A DNA stretch of 64,000 nt from the sequence record MN642089.1, one strand, 5' to 3'. A program made the position numbers and the translations under genes. Position 1 is the stretch's first letter; the number at the start of each line of letters is the position of its first letter. Source of the DNA: Klebsiella phage N1M2. Of the stretch, positions 1,083 through 61,849 are shown in pieces. A model generated the notes under the pieces. That model saw only the letters and a program-made list of their open reading frames with translations, did not search any database and was not told where the DNA came from.

Positions 1083-2504
1083 ATGAACATTGTCTACTAT
1101 ATCGTAAGTTCTTTTATCAAAGATAAAAATGTCGGACTATCTGGCGGTCATGGCTATTCTTACGATCCCGGTAATGAGAGCAAGCGTAAGTTACAGAAAG
1201 ACGTACCAACAGTTTATGGATACTACGTTAATGGTAACTATCAAAATATCGCAGTGGATCAGATCGATATTTATAATGGTCGTATCCTAAACCAACCAAA
1301 TGAAGTTGACGCTTATCTCACTCATCTGGAACTGATCATTAATAAATGGTTAGAAGAGAAGAAAGATGGCAACAAACTTTTGGTAATTAGTAACTGTGTC
1401 AAAGCGCACAAGATGCTTGAGAAAAACAAGTGTCCTGATCAGTACAATGCAGAACTGTTCAAACGTGTTTATGCTTTGATTCAGGAACATAAGAAAGATA
1501 TCATCCACGATATCGAGTATTATGCAAAAGGTGGTGAAGGTCCTAAGACAGCTCATAAACAATTGGAACTCGCAATTGCGTTGGCAGATTTACCCAATCC
1601 AGATGCTGTCACTCTTGACAAAATGGATGTTAAAGAGTATAAGAACCCAGAGATCGATTTCAATAAGTTGGTTACCGCAACTCGCTGGTATTTCAATACT
1701 GGTGATAAATCAACTTTCCATGATGTCGATGAACAAGGGTATCGTCACTATACCTTTGGTCGGGTTGACCCGGATAAGAACTATTATGGTAAGGCAACAC
1801 CAGATGTGTACTATTCTGCATTGTACACTAAAACACCTATTAAGGTTTTGGATAAACTGTTCGCTTTCTGTCAGAAGAACAAGCCAAACCCTTACAACAT
1901 CATGGCAGCCGGTAACTTGAACCACATCAAATCAAAAGAGATCGCTCGCGTTATCGATACGATCCCTGGAACATTTGGTAAGAAAGAGTTAGTTGCCCCA
2001 ATGACGTTAGGTAATAATGAAGGTGCTAATCTGGTTGAATTCATTGACCCACCTGGATTATCTTACCGCATTCGTGATTTCCATGCCAAGCTGGATGCTA
2101 TCTTCCGTTTCTGGAGAAAGCGTGATGAGAACGGGTGTTATCAGAAACATAAGTTTATTGATATCACTGAGTTGTTCTTTGTCAAGGATCCTAAAGGCAA
2201 ATGGAAAATCCATCCGGACTTCACTAACAACACTTTGAAAATGCCGGTGTCTATTGAAGCTCCTGGTTGTATTAAACCAGTTACGATCAATTTGAGTATG
2301 AAGTTCGATACTCCTGAACGTAATGCTTTAAACAGTTTGATTGTGAATAAAGTAGAAGATATTAAAGTCTTCCTTGCTTTAGATTTCAGTGACGACTCTG
2401 GTGTTAGTTATTGCACCATTGTACATACTCCTGAATTTGATTACATTCATTCTAATAGCATCGCTAACCTTCGGGTTTACAGTTTGAAAGAGCTGGGCAA
2501 ATAA
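1083..2504 (+). CDS. hypothetical protein (473 aa)
   Basis: Long ORF; near-consensus promoter-like TTGTTA-N17-TATAAC at about 1046-1074; followed by a terminator hairpin. Confidence 0.7.
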   Translation: MNIVYYIVSSFIKDKNVGLSGGHGYSYDPGNESKRKLQKDVPTVYGYYVNGNYQNIAVDQIDIYNGRILNQPNEVDAYLTHLELIINKWLEEKKDGNKLLVISNCVKAHKMLEKNKCPDQYNAELFKRVYALIQEHKKDIIHDIEYYAKGGEGPKTAHKQLELAIALADLPNPDAVTLDKMDVKEYKNPEIDFNKLVTATRWYFNTGDKSTFHDVDEQGYRHYTFGRVDPDKNYYGKATPDVYYSALYTKTPIKVLDKLFAFCQKNKPNPYNIMAAGNLNHIKSKEIARVIDTIPGTFGKKELVAPMTLGNNEGANLVEFIDPPGLSYRIRDFHAKLDAIFRFWRKRDENGCYQKHKFIDITELFFVKDPKGKWKIHPDFTNNTLKMPVSIEAPGCIKPVTINLSMKFDTPERNALNSLIVNKVEDIKVFLALDFSDDSGVSYCTIVHTPEFDYIHSNSIANLRVYSLKELGK

Positions 2505-2506
2505 AG

Positions 2507-2548
2507 CATACTCCCTTACCCTCCGCAAGGAAGGGTAAGGGTTATATG
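2507..2548. repeat. 42-nt repeat copy 1 containing bidirectional terminator hairpin CCCTTACCC-TCCGCAAGGAA-GGGTAAGGG
   Basis: Identical to 6878-6919; hairpin stem 2513-2521/2533-2541; lies between convergent genes. Confidence 0.8.
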
Positions 2549-2560
2549 TTTGTTTCTTTT

Positions 2561-3619
2561 TTAGTTCATGAATTCATCTGCTAATTGAGCAAGATACTTA
2601 CCTGCTTCTTCAGAGACTTCTTCTTTCGCTAATTTGATTGCGTCTTTCACAATCGCTTTGCTGGTTTTCTTCTCACCTATCTGCAATTGAGAATCAAGAG
2701 TAATAACTGCATCACGATATCTTGCAGCGATAGCTCCCAGTTCTTTATCTACAGCAACAGCACGAGAAAGACTACGACGTTTACCTTCGTCTACAGTATC
2801 TTTGTTAGCTTCGTTCAGCTTATCCAAAGCAACGGTAGCTGAAGCAAGAATAGATTGCATGTCGCCAGCTGCATCGATTAGATCACGTGTAGCCATAGTC
2901 AGATTACTAACTTTGGTGCCAGTGAAGTCAGCTTCCAGTCTATCCACCTTGGCTGCCTTTTCGATAGCTTCAATGCTGGTGTTCAGAGAGGTCAGTGTTT
3001 CACCATTAGGATCGATACGTTTGATCTCTTTAATATGACCCGCTACGCCAGCTAATTGACGTTTAACGGTTCCAGAGATACGTTCTATCGTTTCACTCTG
3101 AATCTCTTCATGACGGGCTTCTGCTTCGTCAGTAAGAGCCACTTCCTTGATCTTCTGATTGATAATCATCTTGTCAGAACTAGACAGGCGTCTGATAATA
3201 CGAATTATCTCGTGGTTACTACCATCGGTAGCTAAACCATCAATGCCTTTGGTCGCTAGTTGTTTAACTTGTCTGTTAACGACATCCCCTTCAAGAGATT
3301 TTTTAGCTTTAGTGAATTGTCTAGCTGTATCACCATTAATCCAATCTCTGATGGCACGCAGTAAGTTCTTGATCCACTCATAAACTTTCTGACCACCTTT
3401 CTTAACGTTATCAAGGAAACTTTCCTGACCTTCTACTTCGACCAAGTCAATACCATGAAGTTTAAGTACGGTATCTGCATAGACAGCGTCGCCGCTCAAT
3501 TCATTATCACCAACACTTTCTTTAGCCAATTCAGCCAGGCCATTGGTGATGGCGCAAGTGTGTTCAAACTCTGATTCCAGAGATTCAAAACCAGTAATGT
3601 GTTTCAGTTCCATTTTCAT
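2561..3619 (-). CDS. coiled-coil hypothetical protein (Glu/Lys/Ala-rich)
   Basis: ORF-track 2561..3649; the first 10 codons overlap the upstream gene's terminator hairpin, so the internal start MKMELKHITG (3619) is more plausible; composition suggests a structural or scaffold-like coiled coil. Confidence 0.6.
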   Translation of the reverse strand: MKMELKHITGFESLESEFEHTCAITNGLAELAKESVGDNELSGDAVYADTVLKLHGIDLVEVEGQESFLDNVKKGGQKVYEWIKNLLRAIRDWINGDTARQFTKAKKSLEGDVVNRQVKQLATKGIDGLATDGSNHEIIRIIRRLSSSDKMIINQKIKEVALTDEAEARHEEIQSETIERISGTVKRQLAGVAGHIKEIKRIDPNGETLTSLNTSIEAIEKAAKVDRLEADFTGTKVSNLTMATRDLIDAAGDMQSILASATVALDKLNEANKDTVDEGKRRSLSRAVAVDKELGAIAARYRDAVITLDSQLQIGEKKTSKAIVKDAIKLAKEEVSEEAGKYLAQLADEFMN

Positions 3620-5769: not shown

Positions 5770-6873
5770 ATGAACGAAAAAGAATTTGAATTCGAAAGTG
5801 ATAACCACTATAACCTGTATGCTTTTGCGGAGCTGACTCAAAAGAAAGTATTTGAGGATTCAGCTTTTAAAGTTGAAAACCAGGATTACCACGATCGTTA
5901 CAAAGTATCCTTGGGTGGGTACATTTGGTATGTCGCTGCTAAGTTCATTGGTAAATTCTGGCTGATGCTGGAACAATGTGAATACCAACAACTTGAAGCA
6001 ATTATTGCTGAAGAAAAAGATGTTAAGGAAGGTCCATACATCCCTTATGAGAAGATCACTGGTGATGTTGATATGTCGGGTCCTTTCTATGAACTCGTTG
6101 GTGAGGATTTCATCAGCGTTGAAAATCGCATGAGCGGTTTGGTTAAAGCAGTAGCACAGAACATTCGTGAAACTGCAACAATCATCAATGAAGAAATGGA
6201 ACTGGTCGCTAAAGACGGTGATATCGTTAAGGACTTTGATGGTTATGTTACTTTTGACACCAAGCTGGGCCTCGACTTTAATGTAGGTCTGTGCTTTGAC
6301 AAGATCAAACCAATTGCTGAAGATAATGCATCGGCTTGGATTGAACGCACTCCTATCACTCAAGAATATCTGGATACTTATTTCCCTAATGCGGGTAAAC
6401 GTATTCTGGGTAAACTTGATCAAGTCAACTCTCTGGTTAAAGCACTGTTTGAATCTAAGACAGTTACTCGTAACCCTGAACTTGTTGAATATGCGGGCTG
6501 GTTGGTCACGGGTACGCTTGTGAACGCCTATCTTAATCAGAACGTAACTTACATCAGTTTCGGCGGTAAGGACAACTGGAGTGTTCTGGGTAAGGAAACT
6601 AAGAACAACCTGGCTTGCTTTAAATACCTGGATCAGGAAGTCGAATACATTATCAAAATGTTGGATGGTATTGAGAAGACCGATGGTGTTGATATTTACT
6701 CTATGGATATTGATACCTTTGCTGTCTTCGGTCGTAACTTCGATAATAAAGTCGTTACGGAAGCATTGCAAGGTTATGTTCAGCCTCTGTTGGATAAATA
6801 CTCCAAAGGTTTCGAGCAATGTTTAGCTACCCGTATGGCAATGATCGATAACCAACACTTCTTTAAAGCATAA
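5770..6873 (+). CDS. hypothetical protein (367 aa)
   Basis: Long ORF with consistent coding bias; the antisense 319-aa ORF 5860-6819 is judged a shadow. Confidence 0.7.
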   Translation: MNEKEFEFESDNHYNLYAFAELTQKKVFEDSAFKVENQDYHDRYKVSLGGYIWYVAAKFIGKFWLMLEQCEYQQLEAIIAEEKDVKEGPYIPYEKITGDVDMSGPFYELVGEDFISVENRMSGLVKAVAQNIRETATIINEEMELVAKDGDIVKDFDGYVTFDTKLGLDFNVGLCFDKIKPIAEDNASAWIERTPITQEYLDTYFPNAGKRILGKLDQVNSLVKALFESKTVTRNPELVEYAGWLVTGTLVNAYLNQNVTYISFGGKDNWSVLGKETKNNLACFKYLDQEVEYIIKMLDGIEKTDGVDIYSMDIDTFAVFGRNFDNKVVTEALQGYVQPLLDKYSKGFEQCLATRMAMIDNQHFFKA

Positions 6874-6877
6874 CAAA

Positions 6878-6919
6878 CATACTCCCTTACCCTCCGCAAG
6901 GAAGGGTAAGGGTTATATG
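6878..6919. repeat. 42-nt repeat copy 2 containing bidirectional terminator hairpin
   Basis: Identical 42-mer to 2507-2548; hairpin 6884-6912; convergent gene junction. Confidence 0.8.
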
Positions 6920-6921
6920 CT

Positions 6922-7701
6922 TTATGCTAATTTTTTAGCTTCAGTTATTTGCAGTTGAAGCACGCGAGTCAGTTCACTTAACTGGGCGAGCATTATCCCT
7001 GCGAAGTTAGCATTATCTACTAACTCACCAATCGCCATATTAAGGGATTCGGTTTCTTTAGGATTCAGAATAACTTCCGATTCTTCTATCTTAGCTTTCA
7101 GAAGGTTGGTAACGTAAATGACATTATCCATACGCTTACTAACAACTTCAACATCACGCGCATTCAAAGTCTGCACGACCGTATTAAAGTTATTAAGGAT
7201 ATCTGTTGCCGAACCAAAGTTAGGATACAGTTCATTCAGGCTACGAGTATAAGCCCCGGTATCTTTCATGAAGTTCTGGAAAGTCTCACGAGATTTAGAA
7301 ATGAGAACCAGATCGTTCACATTGCGAATGCTAAAAGGAACTTGTCCAGTAGCTGCCGCTTTTTTAATACCGCGGTATACATTATCAGCTTGAGAATCAA
7401 CCATTTTGATAATAGGAACTGCGTGGAGAACAAACTCTACGAAATCCTTAAAGGACCAAACTGATGGGTTAAAGAATACTGGAGATGGGATATGTTTGAT
7501 AGCAGCAGAAAAGTACACATTCTGATTAGCTAAATCTTTCCATACTTCCCCACCTTTAACGGTGTGAATTGACTTATTAAAGTTCTTAGCGTTAAAGGCA
7601 TCAAACCCAACACTGAGTTCTTTAAAGAAAGAAGTAAAGCGCTCGCCGACTGAAAGGGCTTCGTTGCCACTTACATCGGTATTTAATAATTCGGTAGACA
7701 T
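6922..7701 (-). CDS. hypothetical protein (259 aa)
   Basis: ORF ends just before the shared hairpin. Confidence 0.7.
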   Translation of the reverse strand: MSTELLNTDVSGNEALSVGERFTSFFKELSVGFDAFNAKNFNKSIHTVKGGEVWKDLANQNVYFSAAIKHIPSPVFFNPSVWSFKDFVEFVLHAVPIIKMVDSQADNVYRGIKKAAATGQVPFSIRNVNDLVLISKSRETFQNFMKDTGAYTRSLNELYPNFGSATDILNNFNTVVQTLNARDVEVVSKRMDNVIYVTNLLKAKIEESEVILNPKETESLNMAIGELVDNANFAGIMLAQLSELTRVLQLQITEAKKLA

Positions 7702-7768: not shown

Positions 7769-9238
7769 ATGCTGACTGCATTTAACTTCTTGAAAGACTA
7801 CGGCGCTGAATCCAACCTTCAAATTGGTTTGAACGTCTCTCCTATCTTTGACCTTCTGACCACCACTATGATCAAAGGTAAAGATGGGGTTTGGTACATG
7901 AACGGCGGTCTGATGCCGATCAACGGTTTGGCAGGTGGTAACAACACCCAGAAAACCGGTAAGACTGTAAAGGACGTTGCTAAGTTACTCCATCGTTTCC
8001 AACACTCCATTATTCTGTATGGTGATACTGAATCTACACTTGACGTTTCTCGTCTGGCTGAAGAAGTCGATCGCCTGTTTGGTATTCCTGGGTACTTCGA
8101 AGAAAATATCGAAGATGTCCGTTTCCACTACATGCCTAACTCTGCTGGTATTGATGGGACCGAACTGCACAATAAAGTAATTGAAATCTATAAGACTATT
8201 ACTGCATTGTCAGAATCCAAAGATAAAGAAGAACAGGCCGCGTATAAGTCTCTGTTCCTGGATACTCCATTCTGGTCACAGAAAGCTAATAAGCACGTTC
8301 AGGTTATGCAACCTATCCTGTTCATTTGTGACTCTATCTCTGAAGTTCTGTTTGATAACTTGATGTTCAAACAGTTCGATGAAGGTGAGATGGATGAAGG
8401 TGGTAAAAAGCGTACTCGTGATATGGAGATCGGTAACCTGCGTCGTATCCTGATGACAGATACCTGTATCCTTGGTCCGCGTGTTGGTCTGCGTTCTTAC
8501 TGGATCGCTCAGTCTGCTGATGTTATCAACATGGATGGTAAGCCAAAAGAGAAAGACTCTACCTTCCTGCGTCATAACAAAAAGCTGGCTGCTCCTAAAG
8601 CAATGCTTAAGTTACCGCACATCGGTATTGAGATCATCAAAGGTCAGGTTCTTAAACAACCAGATCACTCTGTGACTTATCCTCGTGGTAAAGATTCTAC
8701 TATCTCTTCCAATGCTAAGTCTAACCCAGAACTGGTTCAGTATTACACCACGGTCTTCCGTAACAAATCTGGTAGCTCCGGTGGTGATATTAGCTTCGTT
8801 GCTGGTCAGGCAGAAGGTATCCTTGAATACCTGTCAATGTATGATGCATTGAAAGATAACAAATACTTTGGTTTGGAAGGTTCGGCTATTCGTCATAGCT
8901 GTGCTCTTATGCCAGAAGTAAGCATTATGCGTACGACAGTTCGTGAACTCCTGGAAGGCCCAGAAGCTAATCACAAACTGCAACGTGCAATTGAGCTGTG
9001 CTATCACATCTGGCACATGCAGACTTTCTGGGATAACTTCCCTGAAGAATGGCGTCTTACTCCATCTGAGATCTATGCTAAAGGCAAAGAACAAGGATTG
9101 GATTGGGATGATGTTCTTGAAAATACCATCTACTACTGGCACGATAACCCAGAGATCAAGAAACATACATTAACCGTTTACGAACTGATGGAAATCATCG
9201 TGAATGGTAAGAAACCATATTGGAAGGAAAAGAAATAA
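7769..9238 (+). CDS. hypothetical protein (489 aa)
   Basis: Long ORF; no recognised motif. Confidence 0.7.
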   Translation: MLTAFNFLKDYGAESNLQIGLNVSPIFDLLTTTMIKGKDGVWYMNGGLMPINGLAGGNNTQKTGKTVKDVAKLLHRFQHSIILYGDTESTLDVSRLAEEVDRLFGIPGYFEENIEDVRFHYMPNSAGIDGTELHNKVIEIYKTITALSESKDKEEQAAYKSLFLDTPFWSQKANKHVQVMQPILFICDSISEVLFDNLMFKQFDEGEMDEGGKKRTRDMEIGNLRRILMTDTCILGPRVGLRSYWIAQSADVINMDGKPKEKDSTFLRHNKKLAAPKAMLKLPHIGIEIIKGQVLKQPDHSVTYPRGKDSTISSNAKSNPELVQYYTTVFRNKSGSSGGDISFVAGQAEGILEYLSMYDALKDNKYFGLEGSAIRHSCALMPEVSIMRTTVRELLEGPEANHKLQRAIELCYHIWHMQTFWDNFPEEWRLTPSEIYAKGKEQGLDWDDVLENTIYYWHDNPEIKKHTLTVYELMEIIVNGKKPYWKEKK

Positions 9239-10761: not shown

Positions 10762-11490
10762 ATGAACATTGAAGTCTATACCGAAATGGATTCGTTGTTT
10801 GACGCTCGCCGTGGCATCATTATTAAATGTGCTTTGGAATCTGGCAATAAACGTTTCGACTGGAACAGGAACTTTAAAGAGATCTATGCTCGACGTCGAT
10901 TCGATTACTTTCATCAACCTGAATTAGGTATTACTGATGAAGGGTTTAAAGCCCGGTATGCTCAGCGGTCCATAGCTGACTTTGCTGATGAAACACAAGC
11001 ATACATCATTCCAAGTAATCTCATATACAACATCTTTAAGATAGTACGTGAGATTGAGTTCGGTGTAGGTCAGATCATCTCAGTGTCTAAGTTTAACTTA
11101 ACGGTTAATCTGTATCCTTATGTATTGACTCAAGATCTGACTGACGAACTAGCATCTGTAATCCGTGGAGCGGTTCCGTTTAACATTGGTCTATCCTTTG
11201 TAAACATACCGTATGAAAATTTAACTCCTGCGGTTTTACACGCTTATCAGTATTGCTTCATTTATGACTTCCTGACTGGTGAACATCGTAAAGCATATTG
11301 GGAAAATTATGTCCCAGCTGCAAATACGAATACCAAGTTCATAGTTCCAGATGTAATACTGAATAAGGAACTTCCAGAAGAAATGAGAAGCGAAAAGCCT
11401 ATCGATCTAATTGGAAAAATGAATGCTACTCAAGGTGGTAAAATAACCTGGGTCCCATACTCAAAAACCATATTCGATTATAAAGAATAA
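10762..11490 (+). CDS. hypothetical protein (242 aa)
   Basis: ORF followed by a strong hairpin terminator. Confidence 0.65.
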   Translation: MNIEVYTEMDSLFDARRGIIIKCALESGNKRFDWNRNFKEIYARRRFDYFHQPELGITDEGFKARYAQRSIADFADETQAYIIPSNLIYNIFKIVREIEFGVGQIISVSKFNLTVNLYPYVLTQDLTDELASVIRGAVPFNIGLSFVNIPYENLTPAVLHAYQYCFIYDFLTGEHRKAYWENYVPAANTNTKFIVPDVILNKELPEEMRSEKPIDLIGKMNATQGGKITWVPYSKTIFDYKE

Positions 11491-11496
11491 GGTCAC

Positions 11497-11523
11497 CCTA
11501 GGAGCCCCGCAAGGGCTCCTAGG
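11497..11523. terminator. bidirectional hairpin CCTAGGAGCCC-CGCAA-GGGCTCCTAGG
   Basis: Perfect 11-bp stem between convergent genes. Confidence 0.7.
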
Positions 11524-11538
11524 AGTGTTTGTTGTCTA

Positions 11539-12141
11539 TTAAGATTCTGGATCGAATTCTTCATCGTCATCTTCAGGAGCTTCGGTTGTATTTACCGTTA
11601 CTTCCATATCGTCGTCGTCAAAGGTAGATTCAATCTCCTTAGCGTTAACGATCTGACGACCTTGGTACAGTTCGTCTTCTTTGATCTCGTCATCTGGATC
11701 TTCTATACGGATAATAGGAGCCAATGGATCAAGTACGAATGCCTGATTACCATAAGTTGGAATCACAAGCTTGCCTGCAGCTACTTCATTAAGAGCGTTA
11801 ACGAAGGTTGCAAAGTTAGCTCGGTTGTCTTCCAATTCTCTGTCCTTGAGTCTCTCTTTGCGATCGTCACGAACGGTCTTCTCAAGTTGAGCAAGAATGG
11901 TATTGATGGAATCCAACAGTTTAGGGTTGTTAGGTTTATTAATAAAAGTCTGAGTAGCGATATCTAACAACAGGGTACGTTGCTTCTGAATAATACCAAC
12001 TAACTCATTCTCAGCTTCTTTGCTCTGAGGACCTTTAAGAACCTTATTGATTTCAGCAATCAAAGCGTCCTTATCGGTTACGGTTTTCAATTTCTCATCA
12101 GACGGCGGGGCCGGATGAATTTCATCATCATGGTCAAACAT
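11539..12141 (-). CDS. acidic hypothetical protein (200 aa)
   Basis: Asp/Glu-rich termini; ORF. Confidence 0.6.
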   Translation of the reverse strand: MFDHDDEIHPAPPSDEKLKTVTDKDALIAEINKVLKGPQSKEAENELVGIIQKQRTLLLDIATQTFINKPNNPKLLDSINTILAQLEKTVRDDRKERLKDRELEDNRANFATFVNALNEVAAGKLVIPTYGNQAFVLDPLAPIIRIEDPDDEIKEDELYQGRQIVNAKEIESTFDDDDMEVTVNTTEAPEDDDEEFDPES

Positions 12142-12250
12142 AATTACTCCATATTCTTTAGCGACTATTATATTTCAAACAAATATTATCAAAGTAGATA
12201 CGGTGGAAATCTAATTTAATAATATACGTTATAGTCTTGAGGTAAATAAG

Positions 12251-13274: not shown

Positions 13275-14390
13275 ATGTCAACTTTAGTTCAAAGAGCAAG
13301 TTTGTTTGAAGGGGTAGACCTAAATAACAAACTACAAGAAGCTAGCCGTTCAATGACAGAAACGGTATCTGGTTTAACTAACCAATTAGTCAATCCATTT
13401 AAAGTAGTCACTGAAGCTACTGAATCCGGTGTTGCGTTAATTAGTGAGAAACAGTCGCAGATTGCTTCTAATATTAGTGCTTATAAATCTCAGGCTCTAA
13501 CCGGCATCAACAATGCTATCAAAGGTCTTACCGGTGGATTGTTAAATATCGGTGACATCGGTAGTATCGTTACCTATCAAGATGGGTTTAAAGTTAATAC
13601 TGATGAGTTACTACGTTTAGGTAGTAAAGGTCTTGGCTTTAACATCAACTCCATGCGTGATTTGAAACAGCAAATCGGTAATGGGTTTATTGATGAACTT
13701 GATAAAATGACCGGTGGGTTGGCTTCTGGTTTATTTTACGCTGATGGAACCAAGTTACACATTGCTGATGGTTGGGAAATGAATATGGGGATGTCTCTCA
13801 TTGACTTCCTCGGAAAAGACGACCCTGATGGATTTGGGACCATTGTTAACGTAGCAGCCATGAATAGCATCCTTAATACGATGCTTGATAAAACCATTGG
13901 GTATGGAATGTGGCAAGGTTATGGTAATTACGGAAACATGTATCTGTTCCAATCCGATTACCATGACCAACTTATCGATTCATTAGGTTTGGCAATCGGG
14001 CGTGGTGATTGTAAATCTATTCAAGTCATCTTTGATATCATCAAACAAGAAGGTATCAATAAAGTTAAAGCTAAGTATCCTGAATTGATTGAACAGATGC
14101 TTTCTAACTTTACATTTAGCTCTGACGAAGATGCTAGTAATTATCAAGAGATCAAAGTCCTGTTACTTCAAGTTATCGAAACTGTAGGCGGTAAAGACTG
14201 GTACCAGTATCCGACTTCATTTGGTCCAGCAACCAACTTAGCTTTAGTTAACTTTATTTCTGATGACGCCAAACTTCTATTAGGTGAAGAAACTAATTTG
14301 GTTCCTTTATTATGTTCATCCGGAATCTTCATTGATCAATCAGCTCCTGATGTCTTCATGCAAGATTTCCCTAAAGCAGTTAAATTCTAA
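13275..14390 (+). CDS. hypothetical protein (371 aa)
   Basis: Long ORF. Confidence 0.7.
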   Translation: MSTLVQRASLFEGVDLNNKLQEASRSMTETVSGLTNQLVNPFKVVTEATESGVALISEKQSQIASNISAYKSQALTGINNAIKGLTGGLLNIGDIGSIVTYQDGFKVNTDELLRLGSKGLGFNINSMRDLKQQIGNGFIDELDKMTGGLASGLFYADGTKLHIADGWEMNMGMSLIDFLGKDDPDGFGTIVNVAAMNSILNTMLDKTIGYGMWQGYGNYGNMYLFQSDYHDQLIDSLGLAIGRGDCKSIQVIFDIIKQEGINKVKAKYPELIEQMLSNFTFSSDEDASNYQEIKVLLLQVIETVGGKDWYQYPTSFGPATNLALVNFISDDAKLLLGEETNLVPLLCSSGIFIDQSAPDVFMQDFPKAVKF

Positions 14391-14400
14391 ACAAGCATAA

Positions 14401-14431
14401 CCCTTACCCCTCCTCACGGAGTGGGTAAGGG
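14401..14431. terminator. bidirectional hairpin of the CCCTTACCC...GGGTAAGGG family
   Basis: Stem CCCTTACCCCTCC/GGAGTGGGTAAGGG; flanked by a T-run; between convergent genes. Confidence 0.7.
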
Positions 14432-14448
14432 AATATGTATTATTTTTT

Positions 14449-42729: not shown

Positions 42730-43136
42730 ACGTAATACTCTTTGCAGTGCTGTTCATCTTTGCCGTCCTTATTGGTAAACTAGTTATGGGTAATCCCAAA
42801 TCTAAAGTTACTTCAACCATAAAAGGTCGAGTAATGGTGATAAGATATCAAGACAGGATTCTTAATGTGACTGGAGACCGGAGTGTAAGGTTAGTTCTTT
42901 ATACCCGATTTAAGAATGTTGAGCATATCGTCATTCCAATTGGGAGGGGTAAGGAAACAGCAGATCAGGTGGAGAAGTTCTTTATCACATCGAGAAGAAC
43001 CTCTATCTTAGCAAAGGGACTATTCTCGTTCAGTTCTGCTATTAACCCGATAGAACTAATGCAGTTCGATCCAACCTGTGCAGCCGAATTAGTAGAAGCT
43101 CAGTTAAAGTTACAATCCTTCTGTAAAATGAAATAA
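42726..43136 (+). CDS. small membrane protein (136 aa)
   Basis: ATGA overlap; N-terminal TM helix ILFAVLFIFAVLIGKLV. Confidence 0.55.
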   Translation: MNVILFAVLFIFAVLIGKLVMGNPKSKVTSTIKGRVMVIRYQDRILNVTGDRSVRLVLYTRFKNVEHIVIPIGRGKETADQVEKFFITSRRTSILAKGLFSFSSAINPIELMQFDPTCAAELVEAQLKLQSFCKMK

Positions 43137-43147
43137 ACAACATAAAA

Positions 43148-43178
43148 CCCCTACCCCTCCTTTCGGAGTGGGTAGGGG
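43148..43178. terminator. bidirectional hairpin CCCCTACCCCTCC-TTTC-GGAGTGGGTAGGGG
   Basis: Member of the same hairpin family; T-run follows; convergent junction. Confidence 0.7.
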
Positions 43179-56084: not shown

Positions 56085-57550
56085 TACCGGTATTGCTCCA
56101 TAGTTAAAGTTCTTAGTACGATATACAACATCAAAGAGGTTCTGAGTGAAGTGATCTTGATATCAGTTTTGATACCTGTCATGGCTTTCACCAACTCATC
56201 ACCATTTTTTCTCAGTTTAAATAACAGGGCATTCGTAGACTTACTTGAAGTATACGCACCACGAATCTTAAAGAACACATTCTTAAGATCATTATGGCGA
56301 ATAGAGTTAGTCGCTAAATACTCAAATAAGTGAGTGGTGACATCGTCAACAAACTCACGATATTGTTCCCCTTTAGGATGAGAGTATTGAGATGGGAAAT
56401 CACGAATGATCATTTCCAACTTATCTTCATCGGTGCGTGGGATTGCTTTAGCTGCATAAGTTGCAAGTTCCTGTTTAAAGAAACTGTTCTTATCCACCAA
56501 CACAGTTCCGATATAGTTCTTATACCGGTTAACTTGTTTCTGAACATCTTTAATGTTCAGTTCGCCATCTAGTACAGCAAGACCTGAGTCTGTTTCTACT
56601 AGATCAACTGAGTCTTTGATTTCGTACAGAACCTTAGTGTAGTCATTGATAACACCTTTAAGGCGTGATTCCATATCGTTGACCATATACACTATTTTCT
56701 TATCATTATCCATCTTAGCAAAGGCATCAAAGTGAATACCTGTACGAGGATCGATAACGAACTCACCACGAGCACGGAAGAGATCAGTCCATGAACCATA
56801 GCGCTTAATATCAAACTTCAAGGAGAGCTTGTTATAGGCTGTTACAGCAACACTCGGTTTCACCAGATAACCGAAGTAGTGGTTCATGATCGATGTCATA
56901 ATGCGGTAGTGGAACAACATTACTAAATTGATCAAAGTGTCTTCTTTCAGATTACGAGGTAAACTTGAATTATAGACACGGTTCATCAGATAAACAATAG
57001 ACAGGTTAAAAGGTTCAGAAGAAACTTTAAAGTCTTTGTTAATCCATTTGGTTTTAATTAGTTCGTCACGTAACCTTACTTCATCAACATCGATGATATC
57101 ACGGAAGAAGGTAACACGGTCTGACGTTTTGAACAAGATACGGTGAGTGCCTAAATAAGGTGACCCAAAGAACTCTGTATGATCATTGTCTTTGGTAGCA
57201 AAACCATAAACAAATCTTTTCAGTGTTCTTGCCCAACGTTCATTAATAACCAGATCATCTACCAAGCCATCAAAGATATCTTTAACAGCATCATCACGAT
57301 TATAGTTAAAGTTAGGTTGTAGTGCTTCAAATCCAGCCATGTATTCTGGATTATTCAGATAGGACTCAAGCCCACCAAACTGATTTAGAGCTACTTCAGG
57401 ACCAAACAAGGTGAATGGTTGGTCTCGTTGTTCTAAACCCGCTAGTAGCTCTCTCAGCTCGTTATCTGATAGTGAATGTTCCATCATGTCTTCTTCTGAC
57501 TGAGGAACGTAACTTTGCCTTACCGCATAGGCTGTATTAGAGAGATTCAT
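56084..57550 (-). CDS. hypothetical protein (488 aa)
   Basis: ATGA overlap with downstream gene. Confidence 0.7.
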   Translation of the reverse strand: MNLSNTAYAVRQSYVPQSEEDMMEHSLSDNELRELLAGLEQRDQPFTLFGPEVALNQFGGLESYLNNPEYMAGFEALQPNFNYNRDDAVKDIFDGLVDDLVINERWARTLKRFVYGFATKDNDHTEFFGSPYLGTHRILFKTSDRVTFFRDIIDVDEVRLRDELIKTKWINKDFKVSSEPFNLSIVYLMNRVYNSSLPRNLKEDTLINLVMLFHYRIMTSIMNHYFGYLVKPSVAVTAYNKLSLKFDIKRYGSWTDLFRARGEFVIDPRTGIHFDAFAKMDNDKKIVYMVNDMESRLKGVINDYTKVLYEIKDSVDLVETDSGLAVLDGELNIKDVQKQVNRYKNYIGTVLVDKNSFFKQELATYAAKAIPRTDEDKLEMIIRDFPSQYSHPKGEQYREFVDDVTTHLFEYLATNSIRHNDLKNVFFKIRGAYTSSKSTNALLFKLRKNGDELVKAMTGIKTDIKITSLRTSLMLYIVLRTLTMEQYR

Positions 57551-58395
57551 TAACGTTTCCTTGGAACTGTCATCTTAATAGCATCAGACTTACCTTTCGG
57601 ATCAGCGTATGCGAGATATTTCTTAATCTCATTATTATAGAGATCTTTGAACTCTCTGTGTGCGTCTGCATAACCCTGGATGTCATCTTGAACATCCTCA
57701 ACAGTAACACCGAAACGAGATACTGCTTCTTGCATACCACGACGACAAGTTTTGTAGATATAAGCCTTTACACCTAACTCAACGAGTTCAGCAAACTTAT
57801 CATACATTCTTGGTGGGATTACAGAGAAGTGTTCATCATAGGACAAGATGACTTTAGCAATCATGTTAAACATAGCCGAACCAGCATCACGGATAATAAA
57901 TGAGTTATTACCTGTCATAGTGAAACTGGTGAAAGAACGTTGCACCTGTCCATCATCTAAACCATTAATTAAACGGTTAAGGCTGTTGTTCATCATACCA
58001 GAACCGCAAGCAGCATAGTTATTAAAGTTATAACCATTATTGATAGCTCTGTTGATGTTACCTGGATAAACTTCGAGTACAGATAGGATACGACGACCCC
58101 CTGTCATAAAGTCAGGTACGTTTACAGCTATGATACCGCCTGAAAGGTTTTCAATATGAGCCGCACTAAGATCAATGATCTCTGTTGTCCCACCTGCTAC
58201 GTTTAACAGGGGACCGACCATCTTCATGATAACCTTTTCACGGATACCTTGCTCAACAGTAAACTCGTCATTCACTGGAGACCAAATGCTACCATAACCG
58301 TTGTTTGGGTTATGAAACGCTAGTTTCAATAAATATTCAGATATGTCAGTAGGTCCATTAATAACGTACTCTACTGAAAAGTCAACTGGATTCAC
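57550..58395 (-). CDS. hypothetical protein (281 aa)
   Basis: ATGA overlap with downstream gene. Confidence 0.7.
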   Translation of the reverse strand: MNPVDFSVEYVINGPTDISEYLLKLAFHNPNNGYGSIWSPVNDEFTVEQGIREKVIMKMVGPLLNVAGGTTEIIDLSAAHIENLSGGIIAVNVPDFMTGGRRILSVLEVYPGNINRAINNGYNFNNYAACGSGMMNNSLNRLINGLDDGQVQRSFTSFTMTGNNSFIIRDAGSAMFNMIAKVILSYDEHFSVIPPRMYDKFAELVELGVKAYIYKTCRRGMQEAVSRFGVTVEDVQDDIQGYADAHREFKDLYNNEIKKYLAYADPKGKSDAIKMTVPRKR

Positions 58396-58521
58396 GTTTG
58401 AACCCTCCTAATCACTATTTCGAAATAGACCTTTATAAAAGGCATTGATCTCACTATTCAACCATCCTAGGTTCATAATAGAGAGAAGACGTCATATGAT
58501 TTAAAACTAAACAAACATAAA

Positions 58522-58552
58522 CCCCTACCCCTTCCTTTCGGAGGGAGTAGGG
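58522..58552. terminator. hairpin CCCCTACCCCTTCC-TTTC-GGAGGGAGTAGGG
   Basis: Same family, preceded by acaaacataaa as in other copies. Confidence 0.55.
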
Positions 58553-59500
58553 ATTAAATGCTTGGCTACATGGACACTCGAAAGGATAATCAATAATGTC
58601 AGGGTTGCAAATCCCGTCTCATTACAATTACCCAGACGGCTGTCTACGGTTGATGTCAACAACTTCCCCTTGGCATAGGGGCGGACCGTTTGCACTTGGC
58701 TTGGTACGCTATAATGCCATATAGTTACCTTCCAATTTCAGCGCTGTTGTCTCACCCTTGAACATCGGGTGGTCGCTCACGGTTAGGGCACGACTGTTCT
58801 ATGACGGTTCCACCAGTGCTGGAGACACTTAAATGGATACCCGTTTCGTCTAATTATTTATTGTCGCCAGACTCGTCAGATAGTACGACATACCCTCACC
58901 AAAGGGATTAGGTTGGTCCTCTGATATCGCATGAGTAACTATGTTACTCTCATAGGCTCTTTGAACATCAATGTTCAACCTTAAGTTATGCTTTCGTTCA
59001 GAAGGACCGATGGGATGTGTTCCCGCATCATCAACTCTCAAGCTCATCACAGTTTCTGCATATATAGCTAGGGTTTGTTCGACGCCAGAACACAAAGGGG
59101 TACAGCGTTCCCAACTTTTGATAGATATTGTTTTTTATGACCGCCCAGGATGGAGTTCGGGTTCTACCATCATCGATAACCCAATAGTCACGTATCGGGA
59201 GTGCATTCAGCTTATGCTACTGGACATTCTATCAAACGCGCTGCTATGTCGCCGAGGTTTACCAGGGCAACACCCACCAGAGGCTACTTACTATAGCGGA
59301 CTACCGCCGCCGTTCACACTCTGGGTTTTTAACTCGGCCTACATTGCCGAGTACTGCCTCCGTAATTTGTCTGCCCAGTGGGGCCGAACTCTACGGAGGT
59401 CTTACATCCCAATACCGTTGACTGGCAAACCCCTTCCAACCCCGGATCAACCGGCTCATTGGACCAGACTTACACTTCCCAACTTAACTGGGTTACTACA

Positions 59501-59577
59501 TGGTGGCCCTGACAGGACTTGAACCTGTGACCAGGCGATTATGAGTCACTTGCTCTAACCAGCTGAGCTACAGGACC
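59501..59577 (-). tRNA. tRNA-Met or tRNA-Ile2 (anticodon CAT)
   Basis: Manual cloverleaf: acceptor GGTCCTG/CAGGGCC, D-arm GCTC-AGCTGGTTA-GAGC, anticodon loop CTCATAA, T-arm ACAGG-TTCAAGT-CCTGT, encoded CCA; one A-C mismatch at 27-43. Confidence 0.8.
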
Positions 59578-59585
59578 ATTGCTTG

Positions 59586-59825
59586 TTATGCTTCTACTGC
59601 TTTCAGATGACGGTCAAGATCTTCGTAACCACCAACATACTGATCGTCAACTACGATCTGCGGAACAGTACGAACTGGACGACCGACGATTTCACCCAAT
59701 TTGGCGCCATCAATACCAGCTTCTACGATATTGATATATTCAACTTCAGCACCTTTGGAATCAGCCAGTGCTTTGGCGCGATCACACCAAGGGCAATTCG
59801 GTTTGCCGTAGATTACAACTTTCAT
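59586..59825 (-). CDS. glutaredoxin
   Basis: 79 aa; CPWC active site near the N-terminus; VPQIVVDDQYVGGYEDL typical of the Grx fold. Confidence 0.75.
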   Translation of the reverse strand: MKVVIYGKPNCPWCDRAKALADSKGAEVEYINIVEAGIDGAKLGEIVGRPVRTVPQIVVDDQYVGGYEDLDRHLKAVEA

Positions 59826-59977
59826 TTATTTTCCTAACTGATTGTAATATGAATAAAACTGAATATCCAAATGAGGAATTCAATAACTCCCCATCCGATA
59901 ACCCCACAGATGAGACCAGCTACTATCAAGGCCCCTGTCCAGGGCCCACTAGAATAAAACATGTGTATCCCTTAAAG

Positions 59978-60054
59978 TGGTCCGCTCTGCTGGGCTCGAA
60001 CCAGCGACCGATTGCTTAGAAGGCAATTGCTCTATCCTACTGAGCTAAGAGCGG
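59978..60054 (-). tRNA. tRNA-Arg (anticodon TCT)
   Basis: Acceptor CCGCTCT/AGAGCGG, D-arm GCTC-AGTAGGATA-GAGC, anticodon stem ATTGC/GCAAT with loop CTTCTAA, T-arm GCTGG-TTCGAGC-CCAGC, CCA encoded. Confidence 0.85.
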
Positions 60055-60065
60055 TGAATAGCTAT

Positions 60066-60150
60066 CGGGAGTAAGATTCGAACCTACATAGTCTTACGGA
60101 CGTATCCGCCTTCGAATTCCCTCACTAAGTTTAAATAGACTATCCCGAAA
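60066..60150 (-). ncRNA. tRNA-like element with canonical T-arm (GTAGG-TTCGAAT-CTTAC) but unresolved or degenerate cloverleaf
   Basis: + strand GATTCGAACC marks a minus-strand T-loop; a 6-bp acceptor-like pairing TCGGGA/TCCCGA; a long-range ATAGTCT/AGACTAT pairing suggests an insertion or non-canonical fold. Confidence 0.3.
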
Positions 60151-60374
60151 AGTGGCACTTATGATAGGTCTCGAGGTCAGGACTCTAACCTGACTACTGC
60201 GATGATGTCCAGTGGTAGAAACTAATCATCCACCATCACATCACTGCGATGTCTTCAACGACATCCTCGAAGTTGGAATTACACACCGAGTAACCGATAG
60301 GTGGGAAGTGGATCCCAGGTATGCGTTTTAGGCCCTGGCCTGTTGTACCCCGGTTGCACTCAGCATGTAATAGT

Positions 60375-60448
60375 TGGCTGGGGTAGTTGGGATTGAACCA
60401 ACGTCCAGGGATTAACAGTCCCCCGCTAAACCACTCAGCTATACCCCA
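60375..60448 (-). tRNA. tRNA-Asn (anticodon GTT)
   Basis: Acceptor TGGGGTA/TACCCCA, anticodon stem GGGGA/TCCCT with loop CTGTTAA, T-arm GTTGG-TTCAATC-CCAAC, CCA encoded; its 5-prime end abuts the HNH stop codon. Confidence 0.75.
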
Positions 60449-60916
60449 TTAAACTTTTGGCTCTATTCCTTGTTTAATACAGTTGTTGCGATATCCATCC
60501 AAATCGAATATCCCATCAACCATATTCTTCATTAGGGTTTTCATCCCCAATCCAGTTCCCTTTGCTGCCTTTCTTGCAGAAGAATAAACTACATTACCCA
60601 CGGTCCAACCATTTGGTCTAGACATCTTAACATGATTGCTCCTATGAACCTTTTCGGAATCTTTCCAATTATCCTTATGGGTTCCTATGGCAATATGTAA
60701 AGGAGAACAACATAATCTATTCCCGCACAAGTGCCTGACAACTGTATTTGGTTTTAGAGTTCCATAAATGTGGGTTGCTACTAATCGATGTGTCGTCCAG
60801 TGTTCACCATCAATAGTTATTTGACCATAACCTTCCCTAGTGCTTTTGGTCCAATTCCAGCAGCCGGTATCGGAATCAAATTTTACATTAGTAAAAACCA
60901 ATTTAACTTTTGACAT
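60449..60916 (-). CDS. HNH homing endonuclease
   Basis: HRLVATHIYG...VRHLCGNRLCCSPLHIAIGTHKDN HNH-family motif; internal Met MSKVKLVF (60916) chosen as start, since the upstream 46 codons of the track ORF overlap a hairpin and a tRNA-like sequence. Confidence 0.7.
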   Translation of the reverse strand: MSKVKLVFTNVKFDSDTGCWNWTKSTREGYGQITIDGEHWTTHRLVATHIYGTLKPNTVVRHLCGNRLCCSPLHIAIGTHKDNWKDSEKVHRSNHVKMSRPNGWTVGNVVYSSARKAAKGTGLGMKTLMKNMVDGIFDLDGYRNNCIKQGIEPKV

Positions 60917-61627
60917 ATTAATTCCCGTTCTACCGACTGAACTACATGAGCTTGGGCGGGAGTCACTAGCTCCCAGGTCAGACAATGTCCAACTGTAACT
61001 CGGTTTGATTACCTCACGGCAACCCTGCTCTGGCATCACATGGGTCTCACCCATTATCCCCCAGACTTGGCCTACGATGGCTCCTTTGGCGCACCCAACC
61101 CGAAACGCTCGCTCAAAGACTTATCGTAATAAAGCTTTAAGCAAGAGTTTAACCCACTTGACATCTAAGTCAGCACTGATTCTTACTTGCAATTCAACAA
61201 TCAGTTTCGGTTTACCTGACACCTTGGTCAATGTATCACCCGGTTTGTATCTATCACTTTTGGAAGGGCAGTGGGTTATTTGGTTTTGTCTGCGATAGCT
61301 TGGACCCTGCTCATCTGGATCTCTTCTCCGTGAGGACTGAAAGCACTATTCAAGACTAACGCTTAGTATAACGAAGTATATCTAAGATTCCGAACTTAAT
61401 CGGTAGTTGTTGAGTATCGTAGAGGGACTCGTTTCCAAATTGTGGTCCTACCATTATACAACACTAGTTAGGCTGGAACATGTAATCGCTAGTGAAGTTC
61501 CTATTCGCTGCAACGCGGGCCTAGGAAGGGAATTGGCGAACCGGCTGATCGAGGCGAATGACCATGGCTTAATCATTTCTTTTAGTGTCAACCAGTTCTT
61601 GTTCTTAACAGAGTATAGTAAGTTCTG

Positions 61628-61849
61628 TTAATTAAATAATTTTGGTGGTGATATGATATTGGGGCGAGGTCTATAAGTCATCATGCACTTATCTATTCCT
61701 TCCTCTCCCTTTTCATTCCATATCTTAATGATTTCCTTTTCATCCAAGTACTTGCTTAAGAACTTGATCTTCCTTAGAACCCTGTCTGTCCATAGATTGG
61801 ATTTGTTCTTAGCACCCCACCACGATCTGAAGCTAATCTTCACACTCAT
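61628..61849 (-). CDS. small basic hypothetical protein (73 aa)
   Basis: ORF only; overlaps the next gene by 17 nt. Confidence 0.35.
   Translation of the reverse strand: MSVKISFRSWWGAKNKSNLWTDRVLRKIKFLSKYLDEKEIIKIWNEKGEEGIDKCMMTYRPRPNIISPPKLFN

Follow-up and report, generated by a model that had tools for sequence, protein, structure and literature searches.

Structured RNAs longer than about 500 nucleotides (nt) are rare. Besides ribosomal RNA, ribonuclease P (RNase P) RNA, introns and transfer-messenger RNA (tmRNA), we know of only a handful of classes above this length (OLE, GOLLD, ROOL, HEARO and raiA), and each of them is biologically or structurally unusual. Other RNAs accompany the transfer RNA (tRNA) genes of phages. 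The tRNA cluster of phage T4 encodes the stable RNAs C and D (species 1 and 2), co-transcribed non-tRNA RNAs of about 120-140 nt that are freed by host RNases. Theta ribozymes, which are minimal ribozymes like that of hepatitis delta virus (HDV), lie at the 3' ends of phage tRNAs and trim the trailer. GOLLD and ROOL are large ornate RNAs with several domains that are encoded by phages and prophages, in many cases beside tRNA genes (PMC5737381, PMC12286853). In hammerhead ribozymes, pseudoknots between stem I and stem II are established, and about 40% of natural hammerheads depend on them to cleave fast (Perreault et al. 2011, PMC3088659). Here, we analyzed a 64,000-nt stretch of Klebsiella phage N1M2 (record MN642089.1), called the window below, and in it the block at positions 58396-59500. 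The locus adds two predicted RNAs, one of about 690 nt (RNA-1) and one of about 250 nt (RNA-2), that lie outside the catalogued families.

Our best explanation, which we hold to be highly probable, is that the block encodes a non-coding unit on the minus strand. The unit would consist of RNA-1, ending in a type I hammerhead ribozyme, followed by RNA-2 and a terminator, and self-cleavage by the ribozyme would separate two stable RNAs. The comparisons below depend on related phages found by BLAST. The window comes from a jumbo phage with about 90% identity to the Serratia phages Yubaba and Sureiya. Further relatives are Pseudomonas OBP, Edwardsiella pEt-SU, Kosakonia Kc263, Pantoea Survivor, Shewanella SXP01 and Erwinia AH04. 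The phage is a phiKZ/OBP-related jumbo phage.

The block lies between a gene of 281 amino acids (aa) (57550-58395, minus strand; Pfam DUF7484) and tRNA-Met (59501-59577, minus strand), as a first-pass annotation had placed it. That annotation also described the block as richer in guanine and cytosine (GC) than the genome. We found a GC content of 46.5%, compared with 41.5% for the window (rank 34 of 629 windows of the same length, top 5%), which is only a moderate enrichment. Just two open reading frames (ORFs) occur in the block, one of 81 aa (58850-59095, minus strand) and one of 183 aa (58971-59522, plus strand). Neither has a Pfam match, and both are interrupted by stops and frameshifts in Yubaba at 90% identity, so that the earlier impression of no convincing ORF was correct. 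Substitutions relative to Yubaba are spread almost evenly over the three codon phases of the block (33/31/34), with 13 indels that are mostly 1-2 nt long; the two flanking genes have phases of 11/2/109 and 32/7/107 and zero indels. No conserved small ORF was found on the sense strand. Because the codon phases are flat, the indels small, the ORFs broken in Yubaba, and neither a conserved small ORF nor a Pfam match exists, we read the block as non-coding; phase bias, indels in threes and an ORF retained in relatives, which would mark a protein-coding gene, are all absent. A decayed protein-coding gene, the contrary outcome named in the first-pass annotation, was rejected because of the even substitution phases, the 1-2-nt indels and the broken ORFs.

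The block is also constrained and strand-specific. Its divergence from Yubaba is 8.9%, below the 14.4% and 10.0% of the adjacent genes, and its most conserved part (domain B of RNA-1, see below) is 77-84% identical between genera, above the glutaredoxin gene. The RNA-1 part folds with -236.7 kcal/mol on the minus strand (z = -5.9 against shuffled sequences) and with -197.5 kcal/mol on the plus strand (z = -1.7). Since the neighbouring genes, the tRNAs and the terminator all lie on the minus strand as well, we assigned the RNA to this strand. The local complementarity noticed earlier is therefore real, and the candidate structured RNA or RNAs, for which no strand had been named, can be stated more precisely: the whole block is structured, conserved non-coding RNA on the minus strand. 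All features of the block described below are on this strand.

RNA-1 (58803-59483) is a multi-domain structured RNA derived from an alignment of 12 sequences (A4). Its 3' end is the predicted hammerhead cut; its 5' end is approximate, and conserved sequence begins at about 59483-59490. All members have 517-677 nt between the start motif GGGAAGUGUA (in AH04-like phages, UCGAGUGUA) and the ribozyme, and blocks of identity occur throughout. RNAalifold predicted 72 pairs from this alignment, 42 of them with compensatory changes, and our refined model has 116 pairs in 23 helices (P1-P3; P4, P5 and P6/6a; P7-P14; P15-P16; hammerhead). In the refined model 83.8% of the cells are paired (73.4% in shuffles and 35-45% in slid controls), and 66 pairs show double-sided changes (38.9 ± 3.5 in shuffles and 21-35 in slid controls). 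The covariation score was 0.332 against 0.176, a value reached by none of 500 shuffles. The variable hairpins P13, P17 and P18 and the distal part of hammerhead stem III were misaligned by MAFFT and were judged from single-sequence folds. An unbiased search for covarying stacks recovered P4, P7, P9, P12, P15 and the hammerhead pseudoknot, and it pointed to a further pseudoknot, in which CCCG of the conserved P14 loop pairs with UGGG in the joint of P10 and P9.

The 5' domain (P1-P3, 59417-59483) is a long hairpin with GUUGG/UCAAC as its closing helix; its internal loop GGAAGUGUA/CCAGU is conserved. P1 covaries among the members (GUUGG/UCAAC, GUCGG/UCGAC, GUCAG/UUGAC and GUCGA/UUGAC), and so does P3 (UCCAA/UUGGA, GUUAA/UUAAC, GUUAU/AUAAC and CUUAA/UUAAG). 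An HDV-like or theta ribozyme at this end was considered and rejected, because the covarying helices form a simple long hairpin and a test that was not exhaustive gave no nested double pseudoknot. The single-stranded motif GUAAGACC (59405-59398), invariant in the 12 sequences, leads into the P4-P6 region (59277-59405). This region contains P4 (59399-59357), P5 (59352-59332) and P6/P6a (59324-59277), the last with an internal loop GUGAAC/AGUAAGUAG. Double-sided changes are found at 6 of the 8 pairs of P4, and P5 and P6a covary too.

Domain B (P7-P14, 59098-59275) contains a junction of three hairpins that is closed by long-range helices nested in one another (P7, P9, P10 and P11). Compensatory changes occur in P7 (GGGU/ACCC, GGAU/AUCC and GGGC/GCCC), P10 (UUGAUAGA/UCUAUCAA and CUAAAG/CUUUAG), P11 (GUCCAG/CUGGGC and GUCCUG/CAGGGC) and P12 (GCAU/AUGC, GUAU/AUAC and GUCU/AGAC). 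The P12 loop AAGCUGA (59213-59207) keeps its AGCU palindrome while the stem covaries. In our model the P14 loop UAGAACCCGAACU (59166-59154) probably pairs as a pseudoknot with UGGG at 59113-59110; a loop-loop pairing between the P14 loop and the distal hairpin of P4 (AGUUCGG/CCGAACU) was dropped, as it occurs only in the window and Yubaba. A variable linker (59097-59009) connects domain B to the P15-P18 domain (59008-58915), where the helix GGUCCUUCUGA/UCAGAGGACC surrounds an invariant internal loop ACGAAAG/GAUA. Seven of the 10 pairs of P15 have double-sided changes, and GAACGAAAG and GAUAU are invariant or nearly so. RNA-1 has three invariant single-stranded motifs, namely GUAAGACC, UAAAUCCA and GAACGAAAG/GAUA. 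Searches with nhmmer and three domain profiles found nothing of RNA-1 in the Aeromonas and EL phages.

These domains could also be a tandem array of small structured RNAs (the 5' hairpin domain, P4-P6, domain B, the P15 domain and the hammerhead) that host RNases split as they split the tRNAs of the same cluster. Such an arrangement would explain why each well-supported helix closes a local domain, why the unbiased scan gave no solid helix between domains, why the linker is variable, and why domains are exchanged or lost independently, as with domain B, which is replaced by other hairpins in OBP and in two further related loci (L007 and L008). However, all members keep the order of the domains and the length from start motif to hammerhead (about 520-680 nt), and the stretches between domains contain neither terminators nor promoters nor tRNA-like processing signals. 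The invariant single-stranded joints GUAAGACC, UAAAUCCA and GAACGAAAG suggest tertiary contacts, and the sole dedicated processing element stands at the very end. Since the domain order does not change, internal signals are missing and only one processing element is present, at the end, we infer that RNA-1 is one molecule, and we regard a tandem array as possible but rather unlikely.

The processing element is a predicted type I hammerhead, which together with an accessory upstream hairpin P19 (58906-58893) occupies 58799-58906. It was read from the minus-strand sequence and supported by a pattern scan, an alignment (A3) and a covariance model (R1) built from that alignment. The hammerhead proper (58890-58799) forms the 3' end of RNA-1 and reads CUGACGA-GUCU...AGAC-GAAA-CGG...CCGUC/AUAG, where the slash marks the predicted cut 3' of C58803, between 58803 and 58802. 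Stem I pairs CUAU (58883-58880) with AUAG (58802-58799), the core consists of CUGACGA (58879-58873) and GAAA (58847-58844), stem II is GUCU/AGAC, and the long stem III (58844-58804) carries a conserved loop CUCCAG. A pseudoknot joins UGUCG (58890-58886), just 5' of stem I, with CGACA (58866-58862) in the loop of stem II. We assign it to type I because stem I is the open one and the other two stems are capped.

The same arrangement is found once per related locus by the pattern scan, and the catalytic residues, namely CUGA(C/U/A)GA, GAAA, the A...U pair (A15.1-U16.1) and GUC (C17), are invariant in 13 phage sequences (alignments A2 and A3). All three helices are present in the family. Stem I has compensatory variants (CUAU/AUAG, CAG/CUG, CACC/GGUG, ACAU/AUGU and CAU/AUG), with double-sided changes at all 4 of its 4 pairs; stem II has one covarying and three invariant pairs; and in stem III the proximal 4 base pairs (bp) are invariant, while the distal helices form in every member with differing sequences. 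The tertiary contact between stem I and stem II is likewise supported. This 5-bp pseudoknot is 98% paired and shows double-sided changes at three of its five pairs (UGUCG/CGACA, CAUCG/CGAUG, GUUCG/CGAAC, CGUCG/CGACG and CCCG/CGGG). Over the whole hammerhead model, 93.1% of the cells are paired (82.0% in shuffles and 18-64% in slid controls), and the covariation score of 0.325 against 0.109 was matched by none of 500 shuffles.

The model R1 found exactly one copy per phage locus, AH04 included, with 75-99 bits, and nothing comparable in bacterial genomes and other metagenome matches. The hammerhead pattern, searched in bacterial genomes and metagenomes, led to one new family member, the metagenome contig L037; the other new matches were unrelated sequences or other hammerheads. 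A type III reading, suggested by the Rfam alignment, was rejected, because the upstream GUC that it uses belongs to the covarying pseudoknot strand and lacks conservation. We consider the ribozyme a new, elaborated member of the hammerhead class whose self-cleavage is predicted from these alignments. Of the earlier suggestion that group I introns or ribozymes could lie here, the ribozyme part has thus held.

Two further hammerhead-like observations were made. In SXP01, a string GACGAAAC-GGUACGCUAUUAAACUACC-GUC, resembling the 3' half of a hammerhead, lies about 360 nt upstream of the RNA-1 start (L002, about 5030-4990, minus strand); a second hammerhead was dismissed there, since R1 finds no second copy. 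An unrelated GC-rich viral contig from IMG/VR (3300045136_000538, L012) has four compact hammerhead-like matches within 3.4 kilobases (kb), at 8868-8946, 11175-11241, 11453-11535 and 12123-12206, which score 16-30 bits with R1 and represent a clustering of hammerheads.

RNA-2 (58553-58802) begins after the predicted cut and is a pseudoknotted structured RNA. Its helices are C1 (58794-58790/58776-58772), the hairpin C3 (58681-58678/58669-58666) and the nested helices C4 (58647-58641/58576-58570) and C5 (58633-58625/58592-58584). The pseudoknot pairs ACCGU (58783-58779) in the C1 loop with ACGGU (58689-58685) about 90 nt downstream, and it covaries as ACCGU/ACGGU, ACUGU/ACAGU in AH04-like phages and ACAGU/ACUGU in Aeromonas phage pAEv1810. 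The alignment (A7) has 10 sequences, including two Aeromonas phages. Its model of 30 pairs has 90.9% of the cells paired (75.9% in shuffles) and a covariation score of 0.519 against 0.232, which none of 500 shuffles reached; together with the terminator, RNA-2 folds with z = -3.3. Covariation analysis against related phages, recommended in the first-pass annotation, has therefore supported the helices of RNA-1, the hammerhead and RNA-2 alike.

SXP01, Survivor and pEt-SU lack RNA-2 and have the terminator 18-22 nt after the hammerhead. The Aeromonas jumbo phages D6 and pAEv1810 carry RNA-2 and lack both RNA-1 and the hammerhead. These distributions indicate that RNA-1 and RNA-2 are separable units. 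Among 30 IMG/VR loci collected with a DUF7484 profile, RNA-2 was found only in the OBP-like ones, and the 24 loci of more distant clades, EL included, were without it. In D6 (L045), about 600 nt upstream of RNA-2 are free of ORFs (2389-3000); the stretch 2389-3186 folds with z = -4.7 and starts with an uncalled tRNA-like element (acceptor GAGAACU/AGUUCUC, T-arm CCUGGUUCGAUUCCAGG). It may be a non-homologous counterpart of RNA-1. Two deposited coding sequences annotated as "hypothetical protein" overlie these RNAs, one across the hammerhead and RNA-2 region of Kc263 (L005 3530-3721, QYN80068.1) and one across the RNA-2 homologue of D6 (L045 3187-3309, D6_0006), and both are probably spurious gene calls.

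The unit ends in an intrinsic terminator (58510-58552) that was read from the sequence as CCCUACUCCCUCC-GAAA-GGAAGGGGUAGGG followed by GUUUAUGUUUG. A simple terminator scan missed it because its T-run is interrupted. The same type of hairpin terminates the unit in the relatives. Four other copies of this family (CCCCUAC...GUAGGGG with a T-rich tail) were found in the window at 43131-43177, 2519-2561, 14387-14435 and 6862-6922, and the hairpin appears to be the standard intrinsic terminator of the phage. Between the terminator and the 281-aa gene lies a stretch outside the RNAs (58396-58509) that is kept in relatives and that we read as promoter and leader of this virion-protein gene. It contains a TATG motif (58496-58493) and an AGGAGG ribosome-binding site ahead of the GTG start codon. 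In phiKZ, late promoters have the motif TATG with G as +1 (PMC4666361), and if this rule applies to the window phage, the motif would be the promoter of the 281-aa gene.

The position of RNA-2 raises the question of whether it acts in cis. RNA-2 is always directly upstream of the DUF7484 gene, Aeromonas phages included, and the intrinsic terminator at its end lies about 110 nt ahead of the start codon, as would be expected if RNA-2 and the terminator were a leader (attenuator or riboswitch) controlling read-through into the DUF7484/virion-protein operon, with the hammerhead uncoupling it from upstream transcription. However, the three phages without RNA-2 have the same downstream operon and keep the terminator, which is itself a generic hairpin repeated elsewhere in the genome. 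The conserved promoter-like TATG stretch between terminator and gene also speaks against control by read-through, and no alternative antiterminator pairing was noticed, though no systematic search for one was made. We consider such a leader improbable.

It has been reported that phage intergenic hammerheads are common and often occur without a large RNA (PMC3088659), and the hammerhead is the most widely conserved piece of the block by BLAST. The hammerhead might thus be the only functional part, for example by destabilising or separating the tRNA/glutaredoxin transcript, with the remainder a neutral structured spacer or untranslated region. This is very improbable, because the 66 covarying pairs exceed the neutral expectation, the divergence is equal to or below that of the flanking genes, invariant single-stranded motifs lie far from the hammerhead, and RNA-2 is kept in phages that have no hammerhead.

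Known families were searched with Rfam 15 (4227 families) by gathering-score scans of the window and of 15 related loci and by a scan of 58300-61700 at E <= 10. In the window and the 15 loci no family matched RNA-1 or RNA-2, and tRNAs were the only matches at gathering score. Below the threshold only noise was seen, namely Plastid-ycf2 (antisense of the tRNAs), NrrF (23.9 bits) and msr (13.9 bits). Group I intron, tmRNA, RNase P and 6S models had no match in the window even at E <= 10, and a search of the literature gave no published description of these RNAs. The group I intron proposed earlier was rejected, as RF00028 has no match at E <= 10 and the block is intergenic and interrupts no gene. 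A 12-nt tmRNA-like motif, which had been thought a chance match, is indeed so: it reads GACGGGATTTGC at 58607-58618, Yubaba has GAAGGGATTTGC, the other relatives differ, and both ARAGORN and Rfam are negative. RNase P was rejected too. The strings GUGAACGGCGGC, GAAUGUCC and AGAACCCG resemble its conserved regions by eye only; they stand in the wrong order and have no Rfam match, and AGAACCCG falls in the loop of P14, a well-supported hairpin. The idea that the block is a known family or relic (group I or II intron, tmRNA, RNase P RNA, HDV-like or theta ribozyme, or decayed protein gene), to which these strings, the tmRNA-like motif and a nearby HNH endonuclease gene might point, can practically be dismissed, given the silent Rfam and ARAGORN searches, the unconserved or misordered motifs, the uninterrupted genes and the missing coding signature. 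The first-pass annotation had listed the lack of an Rfam hit among its grounds for refutation. This was unsuitable and would wrongly have discarded the finding, because Rfam 15 misses everything here, the hammerhead included.

We propose the following processing of the unit. In the window it would be co-transcribed with tRNA-Met (anticodon CAU; called by ARAGORN, Rfam tRNA 62.6 bits), which lies directly upstream of RNA-1; the same junction is also seen in Yubaba and in the metagenome contig L037. In AH04-like relatives, TATG coincides with the first conserved column of RNA-1. Since TATG is the late-promoter motif of phiKZ, this suggests that the unit there has a promoter of its own in place of co-transcription with tRNA-Met. 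Where tRNA-Met precedes RNA-1, processing of the tRNA 3' end by host enzymes, as in established tRNA biology, would free the 5' end of RNA-1. The hammerhead, braced by the pseudoknot that joins loop II to the 5' extension of stem I, would then cut its own transcript after C58803 in vivo.

Hammerhead cleavage generates 2',3'-cyclic phosphate and 5'-OH ends. Because the ribozyme is of type I, nearly all of it would stay on RNA-1, which would carry the cyclic phosphate, and RNA-2 would leave with a 5'-OH; in the three phages without RNA-2 the terminator tail alone would leave in this way. The hammerhead would be a built-in processing site with the role that RNase P and RNase E have between tRNAs. 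It is plausible that the cyclic phosphate would protect against 3' exonucleases and polyadenylation, and the 5'-OH against RNase E entry that depends on a 5'-monophosphate.

Several points weigh against this unit of RNA-1, hammerhead, RNA-2 and terminator. The family is small, with 13 sequences fetched and Sureiya seen by BLAST only. Because the members are related, the shuffle controls overstate significance; the slid-partner controls retain this relatedness and still separate clearly. The helix model was partly derived from the window sequence and was counted on the MAFFT alignment. The window has no TATG motif ahead of RNA-1, and no promoter was identified for the unit. As no well-supported helix joins the domains in the unbiased stack scan, RNA-1 may be several RNAs rather than one. 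The ribozyme call depends on our own alignment and covariance model, and no Rfam hammerhead model reached its gathering cut-off: only Hammerhead_3 responded in the focused scan, with 14.1 bits (cut-off 48.5, E = 1.4) and a mis-registered alignment placed on a non-conserved GUC. The likely cause is the 40-nt stem III together with the short stem I. We regard the Rfam hammerhead models as insensitive to this long-stem-III variant, and the miss was not counted as evidence against the fold.

The surroundings of the block are conserved among the relatives. Every gene around it is on the minus strand, namely the 488-aa and 281-aa virion-protein genes, tRNA-Met, the glutaredoxin gene, tRNA-Arg and tRNA-Asn. 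The window phage's relatives found by BLAST, from Yubaba to AH04, all share the gene order terminase, thymidylate kinase, 488-aa gene and 281-aa gene, and after the 281-aa gene they have an unannotated stretch of 0.76-1.85 kb, followed by the glutaredoxin gene and tRNAs.

Some observations were made in the tRNA cluster itself, all on the minus strand. An HNH_3 endonuclease ORF (60449-61054), whose true start is probably the ATG near 60917, lies between two tRNA-Asn pieces in the region 60375-61054. Upstream of it is a truncated 5' half of the ancestral tRNA-Asn (60953-60920), identical to the tRNA-Asn of Yubaba, and downstream is a complete, divergent tRNA-Asn (60448-60375). The region resembles a homing-endonuclease cassette which arrived with a tRNA copy of its own and displaced most of the resident gene, and similar cassettes are present in two related loci (L008 and L009). 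At the place of the tRNA-Ser(GCU) of Yubaba and OBP there is a tRNA-like element (60058-60152) with an acceptor stem, a T-arm and a long extra arm, and without the 5' strand of the anticodon stem. It has no ARAGORN call and only 20.7 bits with the Rfam tRNA model, and its copy in SXP01 is 93% identical (L002 5685-5769). Directly downstream of tRNA-Asn, a non-coding stretch of about 225 nt (60150-60374) folds with z = -3.0 and has no Rfam match. Pieces of pEt-SU, SXP01 and Survivor match this stretch at 85-92% identity, and it may represent another structured RNA, the third in the cluster. Upstream of the cluster, about 570 nt (61055-61627) are free of ORFs and have segments 78-90% identical in OBP, Kc263 and SXP01, with no excess folding (z = -0.6). 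This stretch may hold a promoter or leader sequence.

The source phages can be cultivated and their hosts are tractable (OBP in Pseudomonas fluorescens, Yubaba in Serratia, pEt-SU in Edwardsiella and AH04 in Erwinia), so that function is directly testable. If cleavage occurs as predicted, the locus is a clear natural case of a hammerhead used as punctuation inside a non-coding operon. It also illustrates that hammerheads with a long stem III escape the current Rfam models and that some deposited protein calls cover these RNAs.

Compared with type I pseudoknotted hammerheads (PMC3088659; Rfam clan CL00010), the ribozyme has the same full core (CUGANGA, GAAA, A15.1-U16.1 and C17), three stems with an open stem I, a pseudoknot of the 4-6-bp kind between the stem I side and loop II, and a phage intergenic site. 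It differs in its stem III of about 40 nt with the conserved CUCCAG loop, and in an extra conserved hairpin upstream whose loop has an invariant UGG; the CCA of the stem III loop, likewise invariant, is a potential pairing partner of this UGG. Moreover, it is fused 3' of a conserved structured RNA of about 600 nt, whereas the known ones stand alone or in repeats, and it is missed by the Rfam models (14 bits).

RNA-1 resembles GOLLD and ROOL. Like them, it is longer than 500 nt, multi-domain, heavily covarying and phage-encoded beside tRNA genes, with a conserved core and swappable peripheral domains; its about 690 nt and 23 helices directly follow tRNA-Met. However, no sequence or structure match was found, as the GOLLD and ROOL models gave no gathering-score match and none at E <= 10 in the window. 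RNA-1 occurs in jumbo phages of Gammaproteobacteria, and it differs further in that a predicted self-cleaving ribozyme is an integral part of it and that another RNA follows downstream. The sole hint of homo-oligomeric assembly is the conserved AGCU palindrome in the P12 loop. One may tentatively go further and suppose that RNA-1 is a new class of giant "ornate" jumbo-phage RNA, either with a self-assembling architecture like that of ROOL and GOLLD (for example via the AGCU loop) or as a large ribozyme or ribonucleoprotein scaffold acting on tRNAs. The hammerhead would then be a maturation module whose cyclic-phosphate end is needed for function (stability or ligation), and RNA-2, which Aeromonas jumbo phages have too, would represent another new class. 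We think this whole set of suppositions doubtful; that RNA-1 belongs to a new functional class is a real possibility.

The T4 RNAs and theta ribozymes offer looser analogies. RNA-1 and RNA-2 would share with RNAs C and D the character of stable non-tRNA RNAs in a phage tRNA cluster, and they differ in size (about 690 and 250 nt) and in being split by a predicted ribozyme. With theta ribozymes the locus would share the use of a self-cleaving ribozyme as an RNA-processing device in a phage tRNA region; the ribozyme is of another class, and the hammerhead here stands about 620 nt from the tRNA, between two large RNAs. As a working guess, and by analogy with GOLLD, ROOL and the T4 RNAs C and D, RNA-1 and RNA-2 may be stable structural or scaffold RNAs of the tRNA region.

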